Shown here in pieces: positions 17,131-26,675 of a stretch of 64,000 bases of DNA. The stretch's first letter is position 1; each line of letters begins with the position of its first letter. Source of the DNA: an uncultured delta proteobacterium (GTDB taxonomy: Bacteria > Desulfobacterota > Binatia > UBA9968); NCBI GenBank assembly GCA_963745835.1, contig CAVUZH010000004.1:1-64000 (forward strand). The letters are read 5' to 3'. A program made the translations under genes and the position numbers. The notes under the pieces are model-generated. The model made no database searches, was not told the DNA's origin, and saw nothing but the letters and a program-made list of their open reading frames with translations.

Positions 17131-17362
17131 TCGTTGGCGTTCTTGGGTGTATACGCCTGCGGCTTTGACGCCCTAATGTTTGTTCGGGCGATTTCGCGGC
17201 AAAGCTAATTCTACCTGATCTTCTGAGCGTATGTATCGGAATCAAATCCTGCAATAGCAAGCATCGTTAGTCTGTAGCACGGCGCTAACCAGCCACGCAC
17301 CCTGCCGATCTGTTGGAATGGATGCATGTGCATCAGCGACCGAGCATGCTAGTGTAAGCCAC

Positions 17363-18718
17363 ATGGCAGCGGAAGTTAAGATTATCCCGGGTCGCTTGCC
17401 ACCGTTCTGGGACCGCAACGTTCTGTTCTTCTGCAACATGCATTCAATTTTTTACGATAATCAGGAAGAAGCTAACGACCTCATCAGTCAAATTTACGGC
17501 GCCCATTCCTACGGCAGCAGAGTCATTTCCATCCTAAACTTACTGTTTAGACGAGGGCCTAACAAGATCTTTTTAGAAGCCCCTCCCGAACCCAACCTAT
17601 TGGATTACCTTTCGGGCGATCTGCGATTGTCTCTGCCTAGCTTTGCCGTGTTGGATCACCGCGGCTATAAAGATCTCGTCACATGTGTAAAAGATTCCGA
17701 ATTCGAGCCAGCGGCCGAAGATTTGAAAGCGCATGCGGCAACATGGGTGGATGGTTTTGTCACGGACCGCCTTCTCGTCGAAGTTGCAACGGGTTTGAAT
17801 AAGCGGACCATCAGTACGTATGAAGGGAGCAAAAACGGCAATAACAAATATCTTCTGTACCGCCATCAGTTGGAACGAGGATTGCCCGTCTTCGAAACTC
17901 TTCTTGCGGCGACTCCCCGAGAAGTACCAGCCGCGCTCGCTCGCTTGCGACAGTTGGGTTACGCAACGGCAGTGGTTAAAGCCCAGATCGGCGCTTCCGG
18001 CTATGGGATGATCAAGCTCAATACCCAAAATCCGGGGCTGGATAGCATGCCTAACTATCTCTTCTTCGAAGGGCCGTGCATGGTGCAAGGCTGGCTCGAT
18101 GAAGAAAGACCTGGAGTCCGTCGCATCGGCTCTCCCAGCATCCAGATGTTTTTAGATGATCACACTGTTTCCCTGTTCGATTGGACCGAACAGATTCTCA
18201 GCGAGGCCAGCGTTCATGAGGGCAACATGTCGCCGCCACCCTACATTCGAGAACATCCTGAGCTCAAGGACGAGCTTTTCCGACAAGGCGCAATCGCTGG
18301 AGAATGGCTGCACGCTCAAGGCTACCGCGGCACCGCCAGCACCGACTTTGTGGTGATAGAACAAGACGGACGCAATCAGGTCATTATCTGCGAGATCAAT
18401 GCACGGGTGACGGGGGCAACGTATCCCGCAGTGCTGGCCCGACACTTTACGCCTGACGGTTGTTGGAAGATGCGCAACATTCAATTTCGCAAATCACTGG
18501 ACGGCGATCAGCTTCTCTCCCTCATTGATCACGCACAAGTGCTCTACCGGCCGGGCAAGGACGAAGGAATCATTCCTTTTAATTTTAACACTGACGACCA
18601 AGGCAAAGTCATCAAAGGTCAGTTTCTCTGCCTGGGAAAAGACCACGAACAATGCAGCGTGGTTTTGGCGAAAGCCTGGACCGACTTGCCGGTCGAATGG
18701 GGTTATGACCGAGACTAG
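17363..18718 (+). CDS. ATP-grasp-fold protein (putative amide/peptide ligase)
   Basis: NNKY, VVKAQIGASGYG, MVQGW, SPSIQ, GYRGTASTDF, CEINARVTGATY. Confidence 0.7.
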   Translation: MAAEVKIIPGRLPPFWDRNVLFFCNMHSIFYDNQEEANDLISQIYGAHSYGSRVISILNLLFRRGPNKIFLEAPPEPNLLDYLSGDLRLSLPSFAVLDHRGYKDLVTCVKDSEFEPAAEDLKAHAATWVDGFVTDRLLVEVATGLNKRTISTYEGSKNGNNKYLLYRHQLERGLPVFETLLAATPREVPAALARLRQLGYATAVVKAQIGASGYGMIKLNTQNPGLDSMPNYLFFEGPCMVQGWLDEERPGVRRIGSPSIQMFLDDHTVSLFDWTEQILSEASVHEGNMSPPPYIREHPELKDELFRQGAIAGEWLHAQGYRGTASTDFVVIEQDGRNQVIICEINARVTGATYPAVLARHFTPDGCWKMRNIQFRKSLDGDQLLSLIDHAQVLYRPGKDEGIIPFNFNTDDQGKVIKGQFLCLGKDHEQCSVVLAKAWTDLPVEWGYDRD

Positions 18719-19844
18719 CCGAAAAGACGAATCTCTGCGCCGGCGGCTGATCGAGCTCACTCGCGATTTGATCATCATTCCGAGCACGCGCGATCGTCCG
18801 GAGGATATCCAGCGTTGCATGGAATTCGTCGTCAATCACGTGGAACTGCCCAACGAACTGACGGTTCGCCGGTTTTGTGAAAACGGCAGTCCATCTACGG
18901 TAATCCTGCCGCGCGATGTTTCGGCGCCTGAGGTTCTGCTGCTTGCCCATCTGGACGTTGTTGCACGGCCCCAAGGCGCGGAGTACCACTCGTCCGTTAA
19001 TGACGGGAGAATTTACGGGCCCGGCAGCGGCGACATGAAAGGCGAGTTAGCAATACTGTTAGAAGTCTTCCGTGACTTCCATGAGCGCTGCCCGGGAATT
19101 TCACTCGGCCTCGCGGTAACCTCGGACGAAGAAAACGGCGGTAATCATGGCACACGCTTTCTGTTCGAAAAAGCCGGGCTCCGGTGCGGCGTTGCCATCA
19201 TCCCTGACTCCGGCTCTCTCAACGAAATAGCCGTCGAAGAAAAGGGCATTCTTCACTTGAAGCTGAAGGCGCATGGCTCTTCGGGCCATGCATCGCGGCC
19301 GTGGCTCGCTGAAAACCCGTTGGAAAAATTAATTCTCAAATTGAATGAAGTGCGAAACTACTTTGAAACCCTCAAAAACGGCGACACACATTGGCATCCG
19401 ACAATTGCCGTCACTGTGATGCAGACCGAGAATTGTGTATCGAACCGCATTCCATCGTTCGCCGAAGCGGTCTGTGACGTTCGCTTCCCGCCTCCCTACA
19501 ATTCGAACCAGGTAATTTCTCAGTTAAAAGGATTCATGGAGCATAAAATGGATCTCGAAGTGCTTGTCAGAGCCGAGCCGACTAAGGTTTCGCCTGATCC
19601 GCTCTTTCTTACGGCGACCGAAGAAATCACGCAAAAACCGGTAACACTGATCCGCGAGCACGGCGGCAGTGATGCCCGCTTCATTTGCGGCTACGGAATA
19701 CCGGTGATCATGTCCAGACCCTATGTCGGCAATCTGCACGCCGAGAACGAATGGATCGACATCGCTTCAATGGAAACACTCTACCGTATCTACGAACGTT
19801 ATTTGGAAAAGAAGCTCGGCTTGATCGGCATCACCAGAGGATGA
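18705..19844 (+). CDS. M20 family metallopeptidase/deacylase (ArgE/DapE-like)
   Basis: AHLDVV, GRIYGPGSGDMKG, SDEENGG, GGSDAR, HAENEWI. Overlaps the end of the ATP-grasp gene. Confidence 0.9.
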   Translation: MTETSRKDESLRRRLIELTRDLIIIPSTRDRPEDIQRCMEFVVNHVELPNELTVRRFCENGSPSTVILPRDVSAPEVLLLAHLDVVARPQGAEYHSSVNDGRIYGPGSGDMKGELAILLEVFRDFHERCPGISLGLAVTSDEENGGNHGTRFLFEKAGLRCGVAIIPDSGSLNEIAVEEKGILHLKLKAHGSSGHASRPWLAENPLEKLILKLNEVRNYFETLKNGDTHWHPTIAVTVMQTENCVSNRIPSFAEAVCDVRFPPPYNSNQVISQLKGFMEHKMDLEVLVRAEPTKVSPDPLFLTATEEITQKPVTLIREHGGSDARFICGYGIPVIMSRPYVGNLHAENEWIDIASMETLYRIYERYLEKKLGLIGITRG

Positions 19845-20539: not shown

Positions 20540-21853
20540 ATGAGCTTCAATGTTTTCTCCAAGTTTCGATCGAATATCTTTTACGGTTGGCGTATGGTCG
20601 GATTGGTTTCGATCATTCGCATCGTCGGCGGCGGCCTGCATCAGTTTGGTTTCACAGTTTTCTTCCTTCCGATTAGCCAGGATTTAGGAATCAGCCGGGC
20701 GGCAACGTCGCTGGCGTTTTCGCTTTCGCGGGCGCAGGGCGCCATCGAAGCGCCGCTCGTCGGTTACCTCATTGACCGTTATGGCCCGCGTCCTATCATG
20801 GTCACTGCGGTCTTTCTCGCCGGACTCGGTTACATCCTTCTGTCCTGGGCCGATAGCTATGCAAGCTTCATGATCGTCTACCTCGGCGTGATCTCTCTTG
20901 CGTTCGTTGCCGGGTTCGTCCACTCGCCGATGGTAGTCGCCAACAGCTGGTTCATTCATCAGCGAGCGCGCGCGATGACAGTAGTCAGCGCCGCAGTACC
21001 TATCGGCGGCGCGCTGATATCTCCGCTGTTGGCGATCGGAGTATCGTCGATAGGTTGGCGCTGGGCAGCTTTTCTCTCTGGCTGTGTTTTTCTACTAGTC
21101 TGCTTGCCTCTTAGCTTTCAGTTGAAGCGTTCCCCCGAAAGCATGGGATTGCTCCCGGATGGAAAGGCCACGGCACTGAATGAGGGCGCAGATTCGTCGA
21201 TAAGCTCGGCAGACGGAAATGCCAACGGCGATCTCACCAGCAGGCAAGCGATGAAGACATGGATGTTCTGGGTGCTGGTAACTGCGATGACTGCTCGAGT
21301 GACTTGTTACAGCGCAGCCACGGTCCACTTTATCCCGCTGATGGTTTGGAAGGGGATGTCAGAGAGCGCCGCCGCTTCCCTGCTTGGCATCTTTGCGGTG
21401 GTCAATCTAGTGGCGCACTTTGTTCTCGGCTGGATCGCAGATCGGGTAAACAAGCCCAAGCTTCTAGCCGTCTGCCACTTGCTCCCTGCAGTCTCGGTGG
21501 TGCCGCTTCTATTCGATTCGGCTCATTATCAACTTTGGTTATTTGCTATCGGCTTTACTCTACTCGATGCCTCATTTCCCATCGTCTGGGCAACTGTCGG
21601 AGATTTTTTCGGCCGCCGCCACTTCGCTACAATCAGGGGAATGATGAGTTTTTTCTACATGTGGGGAAGCTTTGCCGGTCCGGTCCTCGCGGGCGTGGTC
21701 TACGACAAGACTCAGACGTACTGGATTGTCTTATGGATTTTTCTGACTCTGTTGATCGTTGCGACACTGTTGGTTTTTTCGTTAATCCGGGCATGGACAA
21801 TTCGCATGATCGCGACCGGATCTCCAGTCGCGTCAAGTGCAACGACTGCTTAG
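20540..21853 (+). CDS. MFS transporter
   Basis: FYGW, GYLIDRYGPR motif A, GWIADRV, DFFGRRHFATIRG. Confidence 0.9.
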   Translation: MSFNVFSKFRSNIFYGWRMVGLVSIIRIVGGGLHQFGFTVFFLPISQDLGISRAATSLAFSLSRAQGAIEAPLVGYLIDRYGPRPIMVTAVFLAGLGYILLSWADSYASFMIVYLGVISLAFVAGFVHSPMVVANSWFIHQRARAMTVVSAAVPIGGALISPLLAIGVSSIGWRWAAFLSGCVFLLVCLPLSFQLKRSPESMGLLPDGKATALNEGADSSISSADGNANGDLTSRQAMKTWMFWVLVTAMTARVTCYSAATVHFIPLMVWKGMSESAAASLLGIFAVVNLVAHFVLGWIADRVNKPKLLAVCHLLPAVSVVPLLFDSAHYQLWLFAIGFTLLDASFPIVWATVGDFFGRRHFATIRGMMSFFYMWGSFAGPVLAGVVYDKTQTYWIVLWIFLTLLIVATLLVFSLIRAWTIRMIATGSPVASSATTA

Positions 21854-22054
21854 CGTCCCGCTATCAAAAGTCCTCTGCTGGACTTCGTTTACCTCGCCAA
21901 CGTGAAAATTACATCGTGGAGCTTAGTTTAACGATTTTAATCGCCGACGGCGTAATCGGTTATTTCGCGCTTGACCTAAATTGTGAATCCGCCTATGCCT
22001 GTCAAATCGCGCCATGTAATCTTTGATACGAACTTATGGACTGAAGGAGTCATT

Positions 22055-23131
22055 ATGCGCCGCTTTGGATCCCACTATGCTCCCGCGCTCGGTCTCTTTT
22101 TTGTTGTGTCCGTTATGTTGACGACAATTGGTGCCGAACCAGTTTTTTCACAGGCGCCCTTCTATCAGGGAAAGGCCATCACTCTCATCATCGGCGCCGG
22201 TCCCGGCGGAATGGGTGACTTGCGCGCTAGAGCCCTGGCATCAGTTCTTGTCAAACACATTCCGGGGAATCCAACCATCACATTTCAGTATATGGCGGGG
22301 GCAGGTGGGCGAAAGGCGGCCAATCATCTTTACAATACCGCTCGGCCCGACGGTCTCACGCTCTTCCGGATCTCCAGCAGCATCATACCTTACGCGGTTT
22401 TAGGGGAGTCCGGTGTTCAGTACGATATCGATAAGCTCATATACCTGGGAACGACGGAACATATCCTTTACTATTTGTTCAATACGCGTAAGCAAGCAGG
22501 TCTGGATACTCTGGCTAAACTCCGCGCGGCTTCGGGAGTCCGCATCGGCAGCGCTCCTGTAGGCCATACCGGCTATATCCAGAGCCGCGTGAGCGCCTAC
22601 CTCCTGGATATGAAAGACCCTCGGTTCATTCCAGGATATGAAAATGAAGATCTGGACGTTGCTTTCGCGCGTGGGGAGGTGGACGCGCAGGTCGCTTCAA
22701 CAAGTACGGTCATTGAGCATGATTTGGTAAACAAAAAATTGGTTGACTTTCACGCCGCCATCGAAGTGCCCAAAGGACGTAAAGACTCTCGTTTTGCGAA
22801 TCTGAATCTCCCGGACATCGAAGAGTTCGCCAAGGCCGATAAAGAGAAAAAGCTTTTGGACATGATGCGGGGCTTCCGATCTATCGGCACCGCTCTGCTT
22901 CTACCGCCGGCGACTCCAAAAGATCGTGTCGACATTCTCAAGGAGGCCGTGCGAAAGACCCATTTAGATCCGGCATTCATCACCGAGTACCGGAAACTCA
23001 CCGGCGGCGATGAACCGACCCCGCTCATGCCTGATGAGCAAGCGAAAGTTGTTAAAGAGATTCCGCGCGACGCTGAAACGATAGAGCTGTTCAAAAAGTT
23101 CGCCGGAACCGGACCTATACCGCCGCGTTAA
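22055..23131 (+). CDS. Bug/TctC tripartite tricarboxylate transporter substrate-binding protein
   Basis: PFYQGKAITLIIGAGPGG, HIPGNP, MAGAGG..AANHLY..PDGLT, RGEVD. AAGGAG RBS. Confidence 0.85.
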   Translation: MRRFGSHYAPALGLFFVVSVMLTTIGAEPVFSQAPFYQGKAITLIIGAGPGGMGDLRARALASVLVKHIPGNPTITFQYMAGAGGRKAANHLYNTARPDGLTLFRISSSIIPYAVLGESGVQYDIDKLIYLGTTEHILYYLFNTRKQAGLDTLAKLRAASGVRIGSAPVGHTGYIQSRVSAYLLDMKDPRFIPGYENEDLDVAFARGEVDAQVASTSTVIEHDLVNKKLVDFHAAIEVPKGRKDSRFANLNLPDIEEFAKADKEKKLLDMMRGFRSIGTALLLPPATPKDRVDILKEAVRKTHLDPAFITEYRKLTGGDEPTPLMPDEQAKVVKEIPRDAETIELFKKFAGTGPIPPR

Positions 23132-23430: not shown

Positions 23431-23616
23431 TTAAAGGTCTTCGGAAGGCTCAATTTTACTTGGTTTAGACTCTGCAGCAATCGGCTTTTGCGGCGAAGGA
23501 TGCTTTTGCCGGGCCGCCTCTTCCTGCGCTTTGATGGCGTTGAGACGCTTCTGGAACCAAGTTGACTGTGGCCAACTCCAGTTCTGATCCGTATAGCTTG
23601 AAGTGGACTGTTTCAT
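23431..23616 (-). CDS. Small hypothetical protein (61 aa)
   Basis: GGGAG RBS and an upstream sigma54-type promoter. Confidence 0.55.
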   Translation of the reverse strand: MKQSTSSYTDQNWSWPQSTWFQKRLNAIKAQEEAARQKHPSPQKPIAAESKPSKIEPSEDL

Positions 23617-23642
23617 TGAGTTACTCCCGTAGCGGCGTCACC

Positions 23643-23658
23643 AGCAAGCGATATGCCA
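23643..23658 (-). promoter_or_regulatory. Sigma54 (-24/-12) promoter
   Basis: Minus strand TGGCATATCGCTTGCT matches TGGCA-N6-TTGCW with exact GG-N10-GC spacing. Confidence 0.65.
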
Positions 23659-23967
23659 GCAGCCAACGCGGGATTTTCGAGCAGAATCATGACGCAGAAC
23701 CACTCTGCCATGACAGGACTCAGCCAGTTTCGCTCAAATTCGAACAGTCGAATTTGCCGCAAGAGGGGGGTAGGCAGATAGCGCCTGCATGGCGCAGATC
23801 TCTCGATCTGGTCCGATCACTGTCAGCTGTTGACGGTCCGAACAAGCTGCTTCTATCCGGCGAATGGCGATCACTGCGCTTACCATCTTCAATGTCGTCG
23901 CTGCCACCGATCGGCCTCTACACAAACGCGAAATTAATCGATAAACTTCTCCGGTAAATATTTGCCC

Positions 23968-24636
23968 ATGAATACTAACAAGTACCGATTTATACTATTA
24001 GGATTGATGGTTGCCGCAATGGGCATCGTCATCGGCACGCTCCTCTGGATCAAGCTGGCCCCGCAGCCCCGCTTCGGCGCTAACCAACGGAGTTCTCTGG
24101 AAGGAATGAGCCAGTACGGTTCTGTGCCCGAGTTCTCATTAACAGAAAGAAGCGGAAAGACCATTGGGTCGGATCAACTGCGCGGCACAATCTGGATTGC
24201 CGATTTTATCTATACCGATTGCCAGGATACGTGTCCGCTTCAGAGCGCAGAGATGGCCAGGCTACAAGACGAACTGTCGGGGCAAGAAGTCGTCAAGCTA
24301 ATGTCTTTTTCCGTCAATCCCGACAAGGACACGCCATCAGTTCTTTCCCAGTATGCAGATCGATTTAAAGCCAGCACAGATCGTTGGCTATTTCTAACCG
24401 GCAGGCAAGAAGAGATAAGAAACCTGGTCCAGAACGGTTTCCGCTTGAGCGTCGCCACTGCTTCGAGCGATCCTGGAGTGATTTTGCATAGCCCGAGATT
24501 GGTATTGATCGACCGGCAAGCGCAAATTCGCGGTTATTACGATAGCCGGGATAACGAAGCGCTACGGCGTCTCCGCAGAGATGTGGCCACCTTAGTGAAG
24601 GTTGAGGAGTTTATAAAAAATGGCAAAGACAAGTAA
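23968..24636 (+). CDS. SCO1/SenC family protein
   Basis: N-terminal TM, FIYTDCQDTCP (CxxxC), SFSVNPDKDTP, ILHS, GYYD. Confidence 0.9.
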   Translation: MNTNKYRFILLGLMVAAMGIVIGTLLWIKLAPQPRFGANQRSSLEGMSQYGSVPEFSLTERSGKTIGSDQLRGTIWIADFIYTDCQDTCPLQSAEMARLQDELSGQEVVKLMSFSVNPDKDTPSVLSQYADRFKASTDRWLFLTGRQEEIRNLVQNGFRLSVATASSDPGVILHSPRLVLIDRQAQIRGYYDSRDNEALRRLRRDVATLVKVEEFIKNGKDK

Positions 24637-25502
24637 GAACAGGTCAACCTCCAACATCCAAACAGCTGCGCCGAGCACAGCCAAACACGCAACCGAACTG
24701 GCCGATATTCGCTTTGGCGATCTCCGGTATGCTCCTGTCCGGTTATCTGACCTATTCGGCTTGGCAGGGCCAGTCAGTAGCTGGATGCACGGTCGGCAGC
24801 GCCTGCGACATCGTACTCAATAGCCGCTGGTCGAAACTGTTGGGCATGCCGATTTCGTTTTGGGGCTTTTTGACCTACGCTCTTTTAGCCGCCATTGCCT
24901 GGAACAAAACGACGCCTAGTCAGTGGAAGATGGCTTGGACCGTCACCATTATCGGATTGCTTTATAGCCTCTACCTTACCGGTGTTTCACTGATCGTTTT
25001 GGACGCCGCTTGTCCTTATTGCTTGACTTCACTTGGATTGATGACGGCGATTTTTGCCGTGCTCCTCACGCGCCGGCCTGCTAAAATGCCGGGCTTTTCG
25101 TGGGGACCATGGTTCGGGAAAACCGCGGGAGCGGCGGTTCTGATCATCATCGTCCTCCATCTTCATTACTCAGGTTACATGGGAAAAACCGCCGGCCCGG
25201 AGGATCCATGGATTCGCGGACTGGTTGAACATCTAGCTAAGAGCGATGCCAAATTTTACGGCGCATCGTGGTGCCCTCACTGCGCCGAGCAGAAGGAGCT
25301 TTTTGGCCCCTCATCGGCGCGAGTGCCATACATCGAATGCAGCCCGGGCGGGCCGCGCGCGCCGCAAGCGCAAGCATGCAACGAGGCGGGCATCAAGAGT
25401 TATCCGACTTGGATTATCAATGGGCAACGCTATTCCGGCATTCAGTCATTGGACAGCTTGGCTCAGTACAGCAACTACAAGTCGGCAGGAGCAAAGAAAT
25501 GA
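24620..25502 (+). CDS. VKOR-thioredoxin-like fusion (frameshift near 24690)
   Basis: MAKTSK.. then PNWPIFALAISGMLLSGYLT, C..C VLNSRWS, CPYC, and C-terminal FYGASWCPHC, CxxAGIKSYPTW. Confidence 0.85.
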
Positions 25503-25963
25503 AAACATTGAATCTACGGAAGATTCTCTTGCTGACACTTTCGATCCTATCACTGCTGGCGTATCATCAGACGGCAAGCGCCGACCCTTCTAAGTACCCT
25601 CAGTTTGCCCAACAATCACTGCCTGTCGACGTGCCGCTGGCACTTACATCCATTGATGAGTTAGTTGCTGAGGTGAAAGCGGGCAAAAAGCCATTGATTA
25701 TCGACGTGCGTACGACGGCGGAATACAATGAAGTTCATATCCTCGGCGCCATCTCAGCCCCGCTGGCTCAATTTAGAGAATACATAAAGAGTATTCCCAG
25801 GGACCGGCCAGTTGTTCTCTATTGAGCCTGCCCACATCACCTGGCCAGTTTGGCCTATGGCATTCTCTATGAAAATGGCTATCGCAATATGAAGGTTCTT
25901 AACGAAGGCTTGATCGGCTGGCACGAGAGACGTTATCCGATGGAAGGAACCAAGGTTCCTTGA
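25499..25963 (+). CDS. Probably exported rhodanese-domain selenoprotein (Sec at codon 109, TGA 25823-25825)
   Basis: Signal peptide, IIDVR..EYNEVHILGAIS, VVLY-TGA-ACPHH, then in-frame LAYGILYENGYRNMKVLNEGLIGW to TGA 25961-25963, completing the rhodanese fold. Hairpin just after the UGA. Confidence 0.8.
25826..25862 (+). promoter_or_regulatory. Candidate bacterial SECIS element
   Basis: GGCCA-GTT-TGGCC (25843-25855), G at the first loop position, loop about 22 nt after the UGA. Possible lower pairing TGCC/GGCA. Confidence 0.55.
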
Positions 25964-25973
25964 ATCAGGGCCC

Positions 25974-26675
25974 ATGGCGCGACAAAAAGCTGTTATTCTA
26001 CTTAGCGGTGGAATCGACTCGACCACCGCGGCAGCGATTGCCCGGCGCAATCAGTTCGATCTTCACGCCCTCACCTTCCGCTATGGCCAGCGTCACGAAC
26101 GTGAGATCGAAGCCGCTAAAAAGGTCACGGCTTGGTTACAAGTCGAGGAGCACCTCATAATTGAGTCCGGCCTCGGCGCGATTGGCGGTTCGGCTCTGAC
26201 TGATGGCATAGAGGTTCCCAAAGGCCGCTCCAAATCGGAAATTGAGCACGGCGTACCGGTAACTTACGTGCCGGCGCGCAATACCATCTTCCTAGCATAC
26301 GGCTTGGCACTGGCTGAAAAGATTGAAGCGTCGGACATTTTTTTTGGCGCCAATCAGCTTGACTACAGCGGCTACCCCGATTGCCGCGACGAATACGTTC
26401 GCGCCTTTGAAAGAATGGCCAATCTGGCGACCAAAGCCGCCGTCGAAGGCAAAGTGCAGTTGAAGATTCACACCCCGTTAATTCAAATGACGAAAGCAGA
26501 AATCATTAAGCAAGGGAGCGAACTGGGACTCGACTACAGTCTTACCTGGAGTTGCTATGATCCAACAGTGGACGGCAAAGCTTGCGCTCTGTGCGACAGC
26601 TGTCAGCTGAGGCTAAAAGGCTTCAAAGAGGCAGGCCTTAACGATCCGATCCCTTACGCAACCACCGCGGGTTAG
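25974..26675 (+). CDS. queC: 7-cyano-7-deazaguanine synthase
   Basis: LLSGGIDS, YGQRH, TYVPARN, YSGYPDCR, TWSCY..CALCDSC. Confidence 0.95.
   Translation: MARQKAVILLSGGIDSTTAAAIARRNQFDLHALTFRYGQRHEREIEAAKKVTAWLQVEEHLIIESGLGAIGGSALTDGIEVPKGRSKSEIEHGVPVTYVPARNTIFLAYGLALAEKIEASDIFFGANQLDYSGYPDCRDEYVRAFERMANLATKAAVEGKVQLKIHTPLIQMTKAEIIKQGSELGLDYSLTWSCYDPTVDGKACALCDSCQLRLKGFKEAGLNDPIPYATTAG

Follow-up and report, generated by a model that had tools for sequence, protein, structure and literature searches.

The 64,000-nt stretch of Binatia DNA analysed here (hereafter, the window) carries, between the gene for a vitamin K epoxide reductase-like (VKOR)–thioredoxin fusion and queC, a reading frame with an internal TGA codon at 25823–25825. 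This raises the question of whether the codon ends a short gene or is decoded as selenocysteine (Sec) within the active site of a rhodanese. An earlier note on this DNA had claimed that the frame runs for 45 codons past the TGA, that it ends 10 nt before queC and that the TGA is embedded in the motif VVLY-U-ACPHH. All of this is borne out by the sequence: the TGA is residue 109 of a 154-residue frame (25499–25963), which is closed by a second TGA (Table 1). The ATG of this frame overlaps the stop codon of the VKOR–thioredoxin gene as ATGA. The source genome is a MAG of 25 contigs with 9.3% contamination.

Table 1 Features of the rhodanese locus, in coordinates of the window
Feature	Position	Strand	Details
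SCO1/SenC-family gene	23962–24636	+	Opens the conserved cluster; Pfam SCO1-SenC, 4.9e-27
VKOR–thioredoxin fusion gene	24714–25502	+	Pfam VKOR, 4.1e-22; weak Thioredoxin_4 match; stop TGA 25500–25502
Ribosome-binding site AGGAG	25487–25491	+	7 nt 5′ of the ATG; seen in the sequence
Putative Sec rhodanese gene	25499–25963	+	154 codons including one predicted Sec codon, then terminating TGA 25961–25963
Predicted Sec-type signal peptide	25499–25582	+	Residues 1–28; cleavage predicted after A-S-A, before conserved DPSKYPQ
Rhodanese homology domain	25655–25927	+	Residues 53–143, across the TGA; Pfam PF00581, 6.3e-15, 55.9 bits versus a cut-off of 22.2
UGA, predicted U109	25823–25825	+	Catalytic Cys position; conserved TGA, Cys in distant homologs
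Cys111	25829–25831	+	Second residue of the UxC pair; candidate resolving cysteine
bSECIS-like stem–loop	25840–25860	+	Core 25843–25847 / loop GUU 25848–25850 / 25851–25855; outer C–G pairs, 25840–25841 with 25859–25860
queC	25974–26675	+	10 nt 3′ of the rhodanese gene; Pfam QueC, 8.6e-74

We first asked where the TGA falls within the encoded protein. The alignment generated with HMMER placed residue 109 on the catalytic Cys of 6mxv, 3tp9 and 1yt8 (domain 2), in agreement with the earlier assignment of the TGA to the active-site Cys. The AF2 model (mean pLDDT 87.9) found its best PDB fold matches among rhodanese domains (2kl3, 6mxv and 3nhv), with a Foldseek probability of 1.00, TM values of about 0.6–0.7 and an rmsd of about 1.8–2.1. 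Two codons downstream of the TGA, Cys was present in all 62 distinct Sec-form segments and was replaced only in the L049/L113 form, which has also lost Sec. Further along the loop, H114 is invariant, and position 113 is occupied by His or Arg.

Comparison across genomes revealed that the TGA is conserved. The ortholog search covered 41 genomes (the window's own and 40 relatives) and gave an ortholog-level match in 27, of which 26 had exactly one in-frame TGA; this TGA occupied the same alignment column at 26 of the 27 orthologous loci. A species-wide scan of 62 loci, in which identity to the query was as low as 42%, found TGA at the residue-109 codon in 56 loci, TGC in 5 and GGA in 1. The 27-locus and 62-locus collections overlap (60 distinct Sec-form sequences) and the compared sequences are kin, so that the counts are not independent; nevertheless, a TGA shared in one column at 26/27 and 56/62 loci is more than expected by chance. 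Relatives of the window's bacterium therefore do carry TGA here, and the Cys/TGA pairing that the earlier note had suggested looking for was also found: the TGC codons belong to distant homologs (L114, L117, L118, L119 and L123), and Cys stands at this position in a set of proteins with a YCxCPHH-type loop (P0101, P0170, P0203, P0207, P0258 and P0261). In the lone non-Sec ortholog form (L049/L113), G-N-R replaces U-x-C, with the loss of both Sec and Cys.

The earlier note had also pointed to a GGCCA-GTT-TGGCC hairpin at SECIS distance, and the 22-nt spacing after the UGA indeed fits the published model. As set out in the legend to Fig. 2 of PMC13188914, the bacterial SECIS model has a loop of 3–9 nt, an upper stem of 4–16 bp, a G in the first two loop positions, a UGA spacing of 16–37 nt and a minimum free energy of −7.5 kcal/mol or lower. 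The hairpin has the loop GUU, a stem of 5 (+2) bp and an energy of −8.3 kcal/mol over 26 nt (25838–25863). This energy is borderline, as the 5-bp core alone reaches −7.4 kcal/mol, just short of the −7.5 kcal/mol of the model. Compared with shuffled sequences, neither the 60 nt that follow the UGA (z = 0.16) nor a 40-nt stretch (z = −0.14) shows any gain in folding; the 15-nt core alone stands out (z = −3.35).

Conservation of the hairpin was evident in the alignment. Pairing was kept in 299 of 300 pair cells (60 distinct sequences), and compensatory changes occurred at two of the five pairs (G–C to C–G once, A–U to C–G three times), giving a covariation score that was reached by none of 500 shuffles. 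These changes appeared with the wider set of sequences, an earlier alignment of 25 having contained none. Codon entropy was 0.16 in the hairpin versus 0.67 elsewhere, and synonymous sites were frozen (GCC for Ala+7 in 61/61, AGT for Ser+8 in 57/57), whereas Ala+1 used four codons (9, 17, 19 and 14 times). Three Rokubacteria-type Sec forms retain the hairpin (GGCCC-GGG/GUG-GGGCC) even though the peptide changes from LASLAY to LARGAN, and in the non-Sec G-N-R ortholog it is broken. Because three of the five pairs are dictated by the peptide A-S(AGY)-L-A, and because the Cys form L114 retains four of five pairs using other codons (read by eye), the RNA-level evidence rests on the synonymous sites and the four compensatory cells.

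The presence of Sec machinery in the genome, which the earlier note had named as a check, was confirmed: selA (609 bits), selB (394 bits), selD (383 bits, itself with an in-frame TGA) and tRNA-Sec (74.2 bits; anticodon TCA according to ARAGORN) all score over curated cut-offs. These genes are located on contigs C13 and C22, not on the contig of the window. Within the group, selB was above the cut-off in 36 of 41 genomes, and same-genus relatives have selB together with the TGA form of the rhodanese.

The N terminus suggests that the rhodanese is likely to be exported. Of 57 distinct ortholog N-termini, 54 combine a basic n-region with a hydrophobic core and a small residue (A/G/S) at −1, as counted by our own script and not by a trained predictor; Ala occupied −1 in 52 and −3 in 42, and the sequence ahead of the conserved, predicted mature N terminus is variable. 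In the AF2 model, residues 4–21 form a lone helix and residues 22–27 have a pLDDT below 50. The signal peptide described in the earlier note is thus supported by the ortholog N-termini, but it is not unusual, as had been claimed, because Cys-type relatives also have hydrophobic N-termini.

We next compared the protein with known rhodanese families. Five catalogued forms of Sec rhodanese are known, none of them listed with a UxC motif. The best NCBIfam match was to form 3, the CxU rhodanese_LYCAU (NF041203), at 58.8 bits versus a cut-off of 115 (52 bits in a DNA search). Like form 3, the protein has a single rhodanese domain and, in the active-site loop, a redox pair with one residue in between; unlike form 3, in which the order is Cys-x-Sec according to the family name and the table in PMC13188914, it would have Sec first, at the catalytic position, and Cys third. 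The genome also codes for a related CxU protein, VVLYCS-U-PNE with a fused membrane domain (G000:C15:23184-23501), and this paralog is only 29% identical to the UxC protein. Forms 1, 2 and 4 (PF00581; UxxS, UxxG and UxxG in the table of PMC13188914) have, judging by these motifs, Sec in place of the catalytic Cys, and are set apart by the listed motif only, which here is U-A-C-P, with Cys at +2 and Pro at +3. The UxU rhodanese-related sulfurtransferase of Olavius symbionts shows that Sec can occupy the first position of the pair in rhodaneses of this kind, but there both positions are Sec, and PMC1976440 describes this form as derived from the CxU family.

The Cys-type YCxCPHH rhodaneses are 37–50% identical to the UxC protein and resemble it in the loop (YC[ASG]CPHH/E), in the helix that follows and in their hydrophobic N-termini. 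They differ in having Cys instead of Sec, the L114 and L118 loci lack a VKOR neighbor, and the proteins are uncharacterized; as judged from their sequences, these exported rhodaneses are the Cys counterparts of the UxC protein. Multi-rhodanese repeat proteins dominated the representative search, which was useful only for choosing single-domain Cys forms. A search for longer homologs did not find a domain fusion, which is weak evidence of absence; one candidate for a fused form, P0122, was rejected as a spurious 415-residue frame that crosses the VKOR gene in the wrong frame and terminates at ...VVLY. Scores for TsoB (NF045694, 24.2 bits versus 805) and for PspE (NF007627, 28.8 bits versus 102; TIGR02981, 27.5 versus 126.3) were far below the cut-offs for membership. 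PspE of E. coli is also a small, exported, periplasmic single-domain rhodanese, but it lacks Sec and, having only one Cys, also the Cys at +2. Overexpressed PspE can reportedly feed the periplasmic disulfide-forming system, in work from 2012 attributed to Chng et al., and this would provide a precedent for a rhodanese in periplasmic thiol oxidation. Our literature searches did not turn up a UxC rhodanese selenoprotein, any selenoprotein from Binatia or a relevant paper on VKOR together with a rhodanese, although the supplementary tables of survey papers may list a UxC form.

The gene neighbourhood is conserved among close relatives. The rhodanese gene is immediately preceded by a VKOR match at 25 of 27 loci and at 48 of 56 TGA loci, an SCO1 match precedes VKOR in most relatives' loci, and queC follows the rhodanese gene in most close relatives. 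The VKOR–thioredoxin protein combines a membrane VKOR domain with a C-terminal thioredoxin-like domain containing WCPHC. Of the earlier claim that the operon context is unusual, the pairing of the two genes stands, but a dedicated partnership does not: the VKOR–thioredoxin gene is single-copy and general to the lineage, being present also in 11 of 14 searched relatives without the rhodanese. Since, in addition, the two genes lie on separate contigs in G011 and G022, and non-Binatia Sec and Cys forms have other gene contexts with no SCO1 neighbor, the partnership is not obligate. The queC gene is probably co-transcribed with the rhodanese gene, and we claim no functional link between them; a scan found no terminator-like site between the two genes, and overall the promoter/terminator scan gave fewer sites than in shuffles. 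One RNA-library contig (X16 record 9; 1151 nt, 50 differences) covers 25233–26100, although an RNA library may hold DNA, and another (X15 record 3) covers 25718–25967, a contig across genes being no proof of a single transcript. The ORFs at 21983–23131 and 23562–23957 had no NCBIfam or Pfam match.

Were the TGA a true stop, the gene would encode a 108-residue truncated fragment or be a pseudogene, and the 45 downstream codons would be untranslated. Public gene calls treat the codon in this way, with lengths of 105–111 residues in 117 of the best 120 homologs listed and termination at ...VVLY in the three calls examined (P0002, P0016 and P0094), and the hairpin is small and thermodynamically unexceptional. 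However, such a fragment would end before the active-site loop, without the catalytic residue and the last helix–strand–helix, whereas the Pfam rhodanese match and the AF2 fold both continue across the UGA. Of 63 distinct sequences, 62 have a frame after the TGA that remains open for 44–50 codons; a stop occurs within 43 codons in 1/63 in frame, as against 61/63 in the +1 and 27/63 in the +2 frame, and pairwise differences in this region fall at codon positions 1, 2 and 3 in 30%, 13% and 57% of cases, respectively. Together with the retention of TGA down to 42% identity and the presence of Cys there in distant homologs, this makes a true stop very improbable. A misassembled or misread TGC or TGT is practically excluded by the comparative data, as the same TGA recurs across dozens of species whose genomes were assembled independently. 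This conclusion does not depend on the remark in the earlier note that errors here are mostly indels. Soil and rhizosphere runs contain the stretch. The earlier note would have taken TGC or TGT in reads as a refutation; in the runs compared, all of them in the form of contigs, no other letter occurred at 25823–25825 among the rows listed (a DNA run and two RNA-library runs).

Reading of the UGA as a residue other than Sec, either by near-cognate Trp or Cys incorporation or by a lineage-specific reassignment, appears just as improbable as a true stop. One public call (P0018) does give W at this codon, presumably from a gene caller using a table with TGA as Trp. However, more of the long frames in the window end in TGA (14 of 33) than in any other stop codon, TGA also ends 24 of 63 orthologs of the rhodanese gene itself, homologs pair the codon with Cys and not with Trp or Gly, and the full Sec machinery is accompanied by a SECIS-type hairpin conserved at the expected distance. 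A different alternative accepts the selenoprotein but assigns it to metal handling, the U-x-C-P-H-H loop binding Cu(I) or reducing Cu(II) for an SCO1-type chaperone. CxC-type copper sites exist, for example in Cox11, but rhodanese domains are not known to act as metal chaperones. The location of SCO1/SenC at the head of the conserved cluster and the selenol, thiol and invariant H114 (with H or R at 113) supplied by the loop would suit a copper role, as would the table of a 2026 review, which assigns a UxC motif to a family of Cu/Zn efflux selenoproteins. Nevertheless, the His/Arg alternation at position 113 fits anion binding better than metal ligation, and relatives outside Binatia lack the SCO1 neighbor, so that we consider a copper role unlikely.

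We conclude from the comparative evidence that the locus almost certainly encodes a genuine selenoprotein, and that 25499–25963 is very likely a single gene whose product is an exported rhodanese of one domain with the Sec nucleophile U109. There is strong support for recoding of the UGA at 25823–25825 as Sec through the stem–loop GGCCA-GUU-UGGCC together with SelA, SelB, SelD and tRNA-Sec, and for a mature protein, with the loop U-A-C-P-H-H, that begins at D29 after removal of the Sec-pathway signal peptide. In the periplasm, U109 may attack a sulfur, selenium or disulfide substrate, and C111 could resolve the adduct to form a selenenylsulfide. The thioredoxin-like domain of the VKOR protein, whose gene lies just upstream, might then return the U109/C111 pair to its starting state; this VKOR protein may represent the DsbB/DsbA-type, quinone-linked thiol oxidase of the lineage. 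Whether the rhodanese has a redox or sulfur-transfer role linked to VKOR–thioredoxin is a close call that we would answer slightly in the negative. We further suggest, as a speculation that is more probably wrong than right by a wide measure, a relay from quinone through the VKOR membrane domain and its thioredoxin domain to Sec109/Cys111, with the UxC selenorhodanese as the catalytic end. If this relay were true, it would allow flavin-free oxidation or reduction of small sulfur or selenium compounds (sulfide, thiosulfate, polysulfide or selenite) against the quinone pool in Binatia or, alternatively, provide a selenium-boosted oxidant for periplasmic thiols; it would then be more than another sulfurtransferase, namely a selenoenzyme system of a new type that serves respiration or detoxification.

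Hundreds of public entries for the UxC rhodanese gene end at the UGA and, because no NCBIfam model reaches its cut-off, automatic pipelines keep missing the protein; a subfamily model would mend the annotation across Binatia, which are common in soils. UxC is the missing arrangement in the series CxC, CxU and UxU of one rhodanese loop, and the occurrence of UxC and CxU rhodaneses in one genome invites a comparison of the two to learn which residue gains from selenium. The tight, translationally coupled pairing with VKOR–thioredoxin provides a testable link from selenium to periplasmic thiol oxidation.

Judged from its sequence, the rhodanese gene at 25499..25963 (+) very probably encodes a genuine, mis-annotated selenoprotein, in agreement with the earlier note, which had proposed a hidden one: the conserved TGA, a coding downstream frame, a hairpin and sel genes were all found. 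The frame opens on an ATG that follows an AGGAG and overlaps the stop codon of the gene before it, a VKOR–thioredoxin fusion (VKOR-Trx), and reading through codon 109 adds 45 further codons, giving a 154-residue product with the local sequence VVLY-U-ACPHHLASLAY. The TGA, the extension and the position of queC match the coordinates described in that note, as does its claim that the extension completes the rhodanese domain: the domain is complete only with the TGA read, because the Pfam Rhodanese match (55.9 bits) covers residues 53–143, across the TGA. The genome also encodes the Sec machinery, on contigs C22 and C13, and its SelD is probably itself Sec-containing, since selD has an in-frame TGA. 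Of the group's 41 genomes, 36 have selB above its cut-off; none turned up in G001, G007, G016 and G033, relatives that carry the TGA form and are 81–96% complete.

Coordinates of the features discussed (G000, the window's own genome; G013 and G019, relatives)
Feature	Location	Strand	Detail
tRNA-Sec, anticodon TCA	G000 C13:203502-203592		74.2 bits; anticodon by ARAGORN
selA	G000 C22		609 bits
selB	G000 C22		394 bits
selD	G000 C22		383 bits; own in-frame TGA
selA, selB, selD, adjacent	G000:C22:65479-70161
AGGAG	window 25487-25491
ATGA overlap	window 25499-25502		ATG at 25499
UGA codon	window 25823-25825		codon 109 (U109)
SECIS-like stem-loop	window 25843-25847 with 25851-25855	+	GGCCA/UGGCC, loop GUU; 22 nt after UGA
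Tyr-UGA to hairpin end	window 25820-25857		38 nt
Terminal TGA	window 25961-25963
queC start	window 25974		10 nt past end of rhodanese frame
CxU rhodanese (L055)	G000:C15:23184-23501	-	~380-codon frame
Short CxU-domain copy	G000:C20:52985-53161	-	includes TGA
Short CxU-domain copy	G000:C15:31966-32157	-	includes TGA
Short CxU-domain copy	G000:C15:20633-20743	-	includes TGA
Sec-less orthologue (L049)	G013:C39:14927-15964		G-N-R for U-A-C
VKOR-Trx orthologue	G019:C70:22806-23576		one in-frame TGA
Overlapping long ORFs	window 17318-19844		17318-18718 with 18525-19844
Overlapping long ORFs	window 20540-23131		20540-21853 with 21259-22026 and 21983-23131

With the rhodanese protein as query, a six-frame search of 40 relatives and of the genome that holds the window gave orthologue-level matches (E of 3e-29 or better) in 27 of the 41 genomes and only weak rhodanese matches in 14; exactly one in-frame TGA was present in 26 of the 27, and none in G013. 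The TGA fell in the same column in 26 of the 27 fetched loci, L049 being the exception (25 of 26 without L042, from the unpublished genome G018, which leaves the conclusions unaltered). A wider scan, in which each prokaryote species was represented by a single genome, yielded 62 loci, labelled mostly as Candidatus Binatia or 'Deltaproteobacteria' MAGs and in a minority as Rokubacteria/Methylomirabilota, WOR-3 or Caldipriscus, with TGA in 56, TGC in 5 and GGA in 1 at the Sec position. Database homologues that share the loop but carry Cys include P0101 (LYCACPHHLASLAY) and, with YC[ASG]CPH..., P0170, P0203, P0207, P0258 and P0261, so that both the TGA in close relatives and the Cys/TGA pairing that the earlier note wanted checked are present. 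Because the two collections overlap, identical sequences were counted once, leaving 60 distinct Sec-form 60-nt segments. One orthologue (loci L049 and L113) reads Y-G-N-R-P in place of Y-U-A-C-P; it retains the signal peptide and is still flanked by VKOR and queC, its hairpin is lost, selB is present in its genome, and it is apparently a copy that has lost catalysis or been repurposed.

Past the TGA, the reading frame remains open over 44–50 codons in 62 of 63 distinct sequences, the exception (L032) diverging abruptly 19 codons on; within 43 codons, the +1 frame meets a stop in 61/63 sequences and the +2 frame in 27/63. Pairwise differences over codons +11 to +36 after the UGA split into 30%, 13% and 57% at codon positions 1, 2 and 3, as expected of coding sequence. 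Reassignment of TGA does not apply here: 24 of the 63 orthologues end on it, as do 14 of the window's 33 long frames.

The bacterial SECIS model, as given in a 2026 review (PMC13188914), is a stem-loop with a 3–9-nt apical loop, a 4–16-bp stem, G at loop position 1 or 2, a UGA-to-loop spacing of 16–37 nt and an MFE of -7.5 kcal/mol or lower. The hairpin here has an energy of -8.3 kcal/mol as a 26-nt element including two outer C-G pairs, and -7.4 for the 5-bp core alone; the longer region after the UGA is thermodynamically ordinary against shuffles (z = 0.16). Standard pairs fill 299 of 300 pair cells in the 60 distinct Sec-form sequences, with compensatory changes in one pair from G-C to C-G (L102) and in another from A-U to C-G (L116, L120, L122). 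The covariation score and the percentage paired were reached by 0 of 500 shuffles and the number of double-change pairs by 1 of 500, in a test where kin sequences can outscore shuffles without any structure. Three of the five pairs are dictated by the peptide A-S(AGY)-L-A, and the Cys form L114 retains four of five using other codons. Suppression of synonymous sites is stronger evidence for a SECIS than pair covariation: normalised codon entropy averages 0.16 over the five hairpin codons versus 0.67 over 18 other conserved codons, with Ala+7 frozen as GCC (61/61) and Ser+8 as AGT (57/57), compared with GCC 9, GCG 17, GCT 19 and GCA 14 at Ala+1. Three Rokubacteria-type Sec forms have LARGAN for LASLAY, with the hairpin GGCCC-GGG/GUG-GGGCC still in register. 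The segment from Tyr-UGA to the hairpin end is the most conserved DNA of this gene family; it is the sole match of several otherwise dissimilar contigs in two soil RNA libraries, whose unmatched flanks on both sides code for related rhodaneses.

The same review catalogues five rhodanese selenoprotein forms (UxxS; UxxG; CxU, NF041203; UxxG; UxxxxU, TsoB), and a UxU variant was reported in 2007 (PMC1976440); compared by listed motif, none has UxC. The window protein scores 58.8 bits against NF041203 (cut-off 115, reached by no match in the 41 genomes) and far under the TsoB and PspE cut-offs. Since the motif differs, the UxC rhodanese is a further form under the field's rule, by which one domain carrying another Sec site or motif counts as a separate subfamily; the literature searched, supplements lying outside its scope, held no description of it or of Binatia selenoproteins. 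G000 encodes a second rhodanese selenoprotein (L055), in which an N-terminal part with several membrane passes precedes a C-terminal rhodanese domain reading VVLYCS-U-PNEATSARVA. This CxU arrangement mirrors UxC, and the two thus coexist in one organism; 8 of the 40 relatives have comparable matches that contain a TGA. Three short, near-identical duplicates of the CxU domain's C-terminal part, in broken frames, may be fragments of genes, repeats or a product of MAG redundancy.

HMMER alignments place residue 109 on the active-site Cys of 6mxv domain 2 (LYCGSGFR), 3tp9 and 1yt8 domain 2, where the earlier note had put it. An AlphaFold2 model (62-row alignment; mean pLDDT 87.9, blocks of 95–98 across most of the rhodanese domain) best matched the single rhodanese domains 2kl3, 6mxv and 3nhv (TM 0.6–0.7). 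The active-site loop reads U-[A/Q/E]-C-P-[H/R]-H, with Cys111 and His114 kept in at least 90% of rows and Pro112 invariant. By a custom script's feature count, 54 of 57 distinct orthologue N-termini begin with basic residues, continue into a hydrophobic core and carry a small residue at -1, with Ala at -1 in 52 and at -3 in 42, directly before a conserved D-P-S-K-Y-P-Q; this looks like a Sec-pathway signal peptide.

SCO1/SenC, VKOR-Trx, rhodanese and queC form a recurrent cluster. In 25 of 27 relatives' loci the rhodanese is immediately preceded by a VKOR match, and such a match also lies upstream in 48 of 56 TGA loci of the wider scan; of the other eight, two begin within the gene, three are Binatia-type lacking VKOR and three Rokubacteria-type. 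The latter (L116, L120, L122, labelled Rokubacteria/Methylomirabilota; matches ~2501-2818; loop Y-U-ACPH[TA]LARGAN, all-G/C hairpin) adjoin TldD/PmbA-type peptidase genes in place of VKOR. In G011 and G022 rhodanese and VKOR-Trx lie on separate contigs. VKOR-Trx, a single-copy gene, was found in 36 of 41 genomes, among them 11 of the 14 that have no rhodanese orthologue. It is thus the general thiol oxidase of this lineage's periplasm, with the rhodanese a predicted accessory gene, usually co-expressed with it; bacterial VKOR is a functional equivalent of DsbB, according to a review (PMC5403849). The in-frame TGA of the G019 orthologue may reflect an error, a pseudogene or a further Sec site. 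Elsewhere in the window, the overlapping long ORFs, two without a family match, may be assembly frameshift errors, as suspected earlier, or spurious frames.

The recoding signals, fold, Sec position and export signals are established. The mechanism is put forward tentatively, at somewhat below even confidence for its steps taken jointly: Sec109 would act as nucleophile, Cys111 would resolve the adduct to a selenenylsulfide, and the pair would exchange electrons with the VKOR thioredoxin domain. A copper-related role together with SCO1, whose gene recurs in the cluster, is unlikely. What probability these two readings leave, a substantial share, falls to a periplasmic sulfurtransferase of the ordinary kind, not specially tied to its neighbours.
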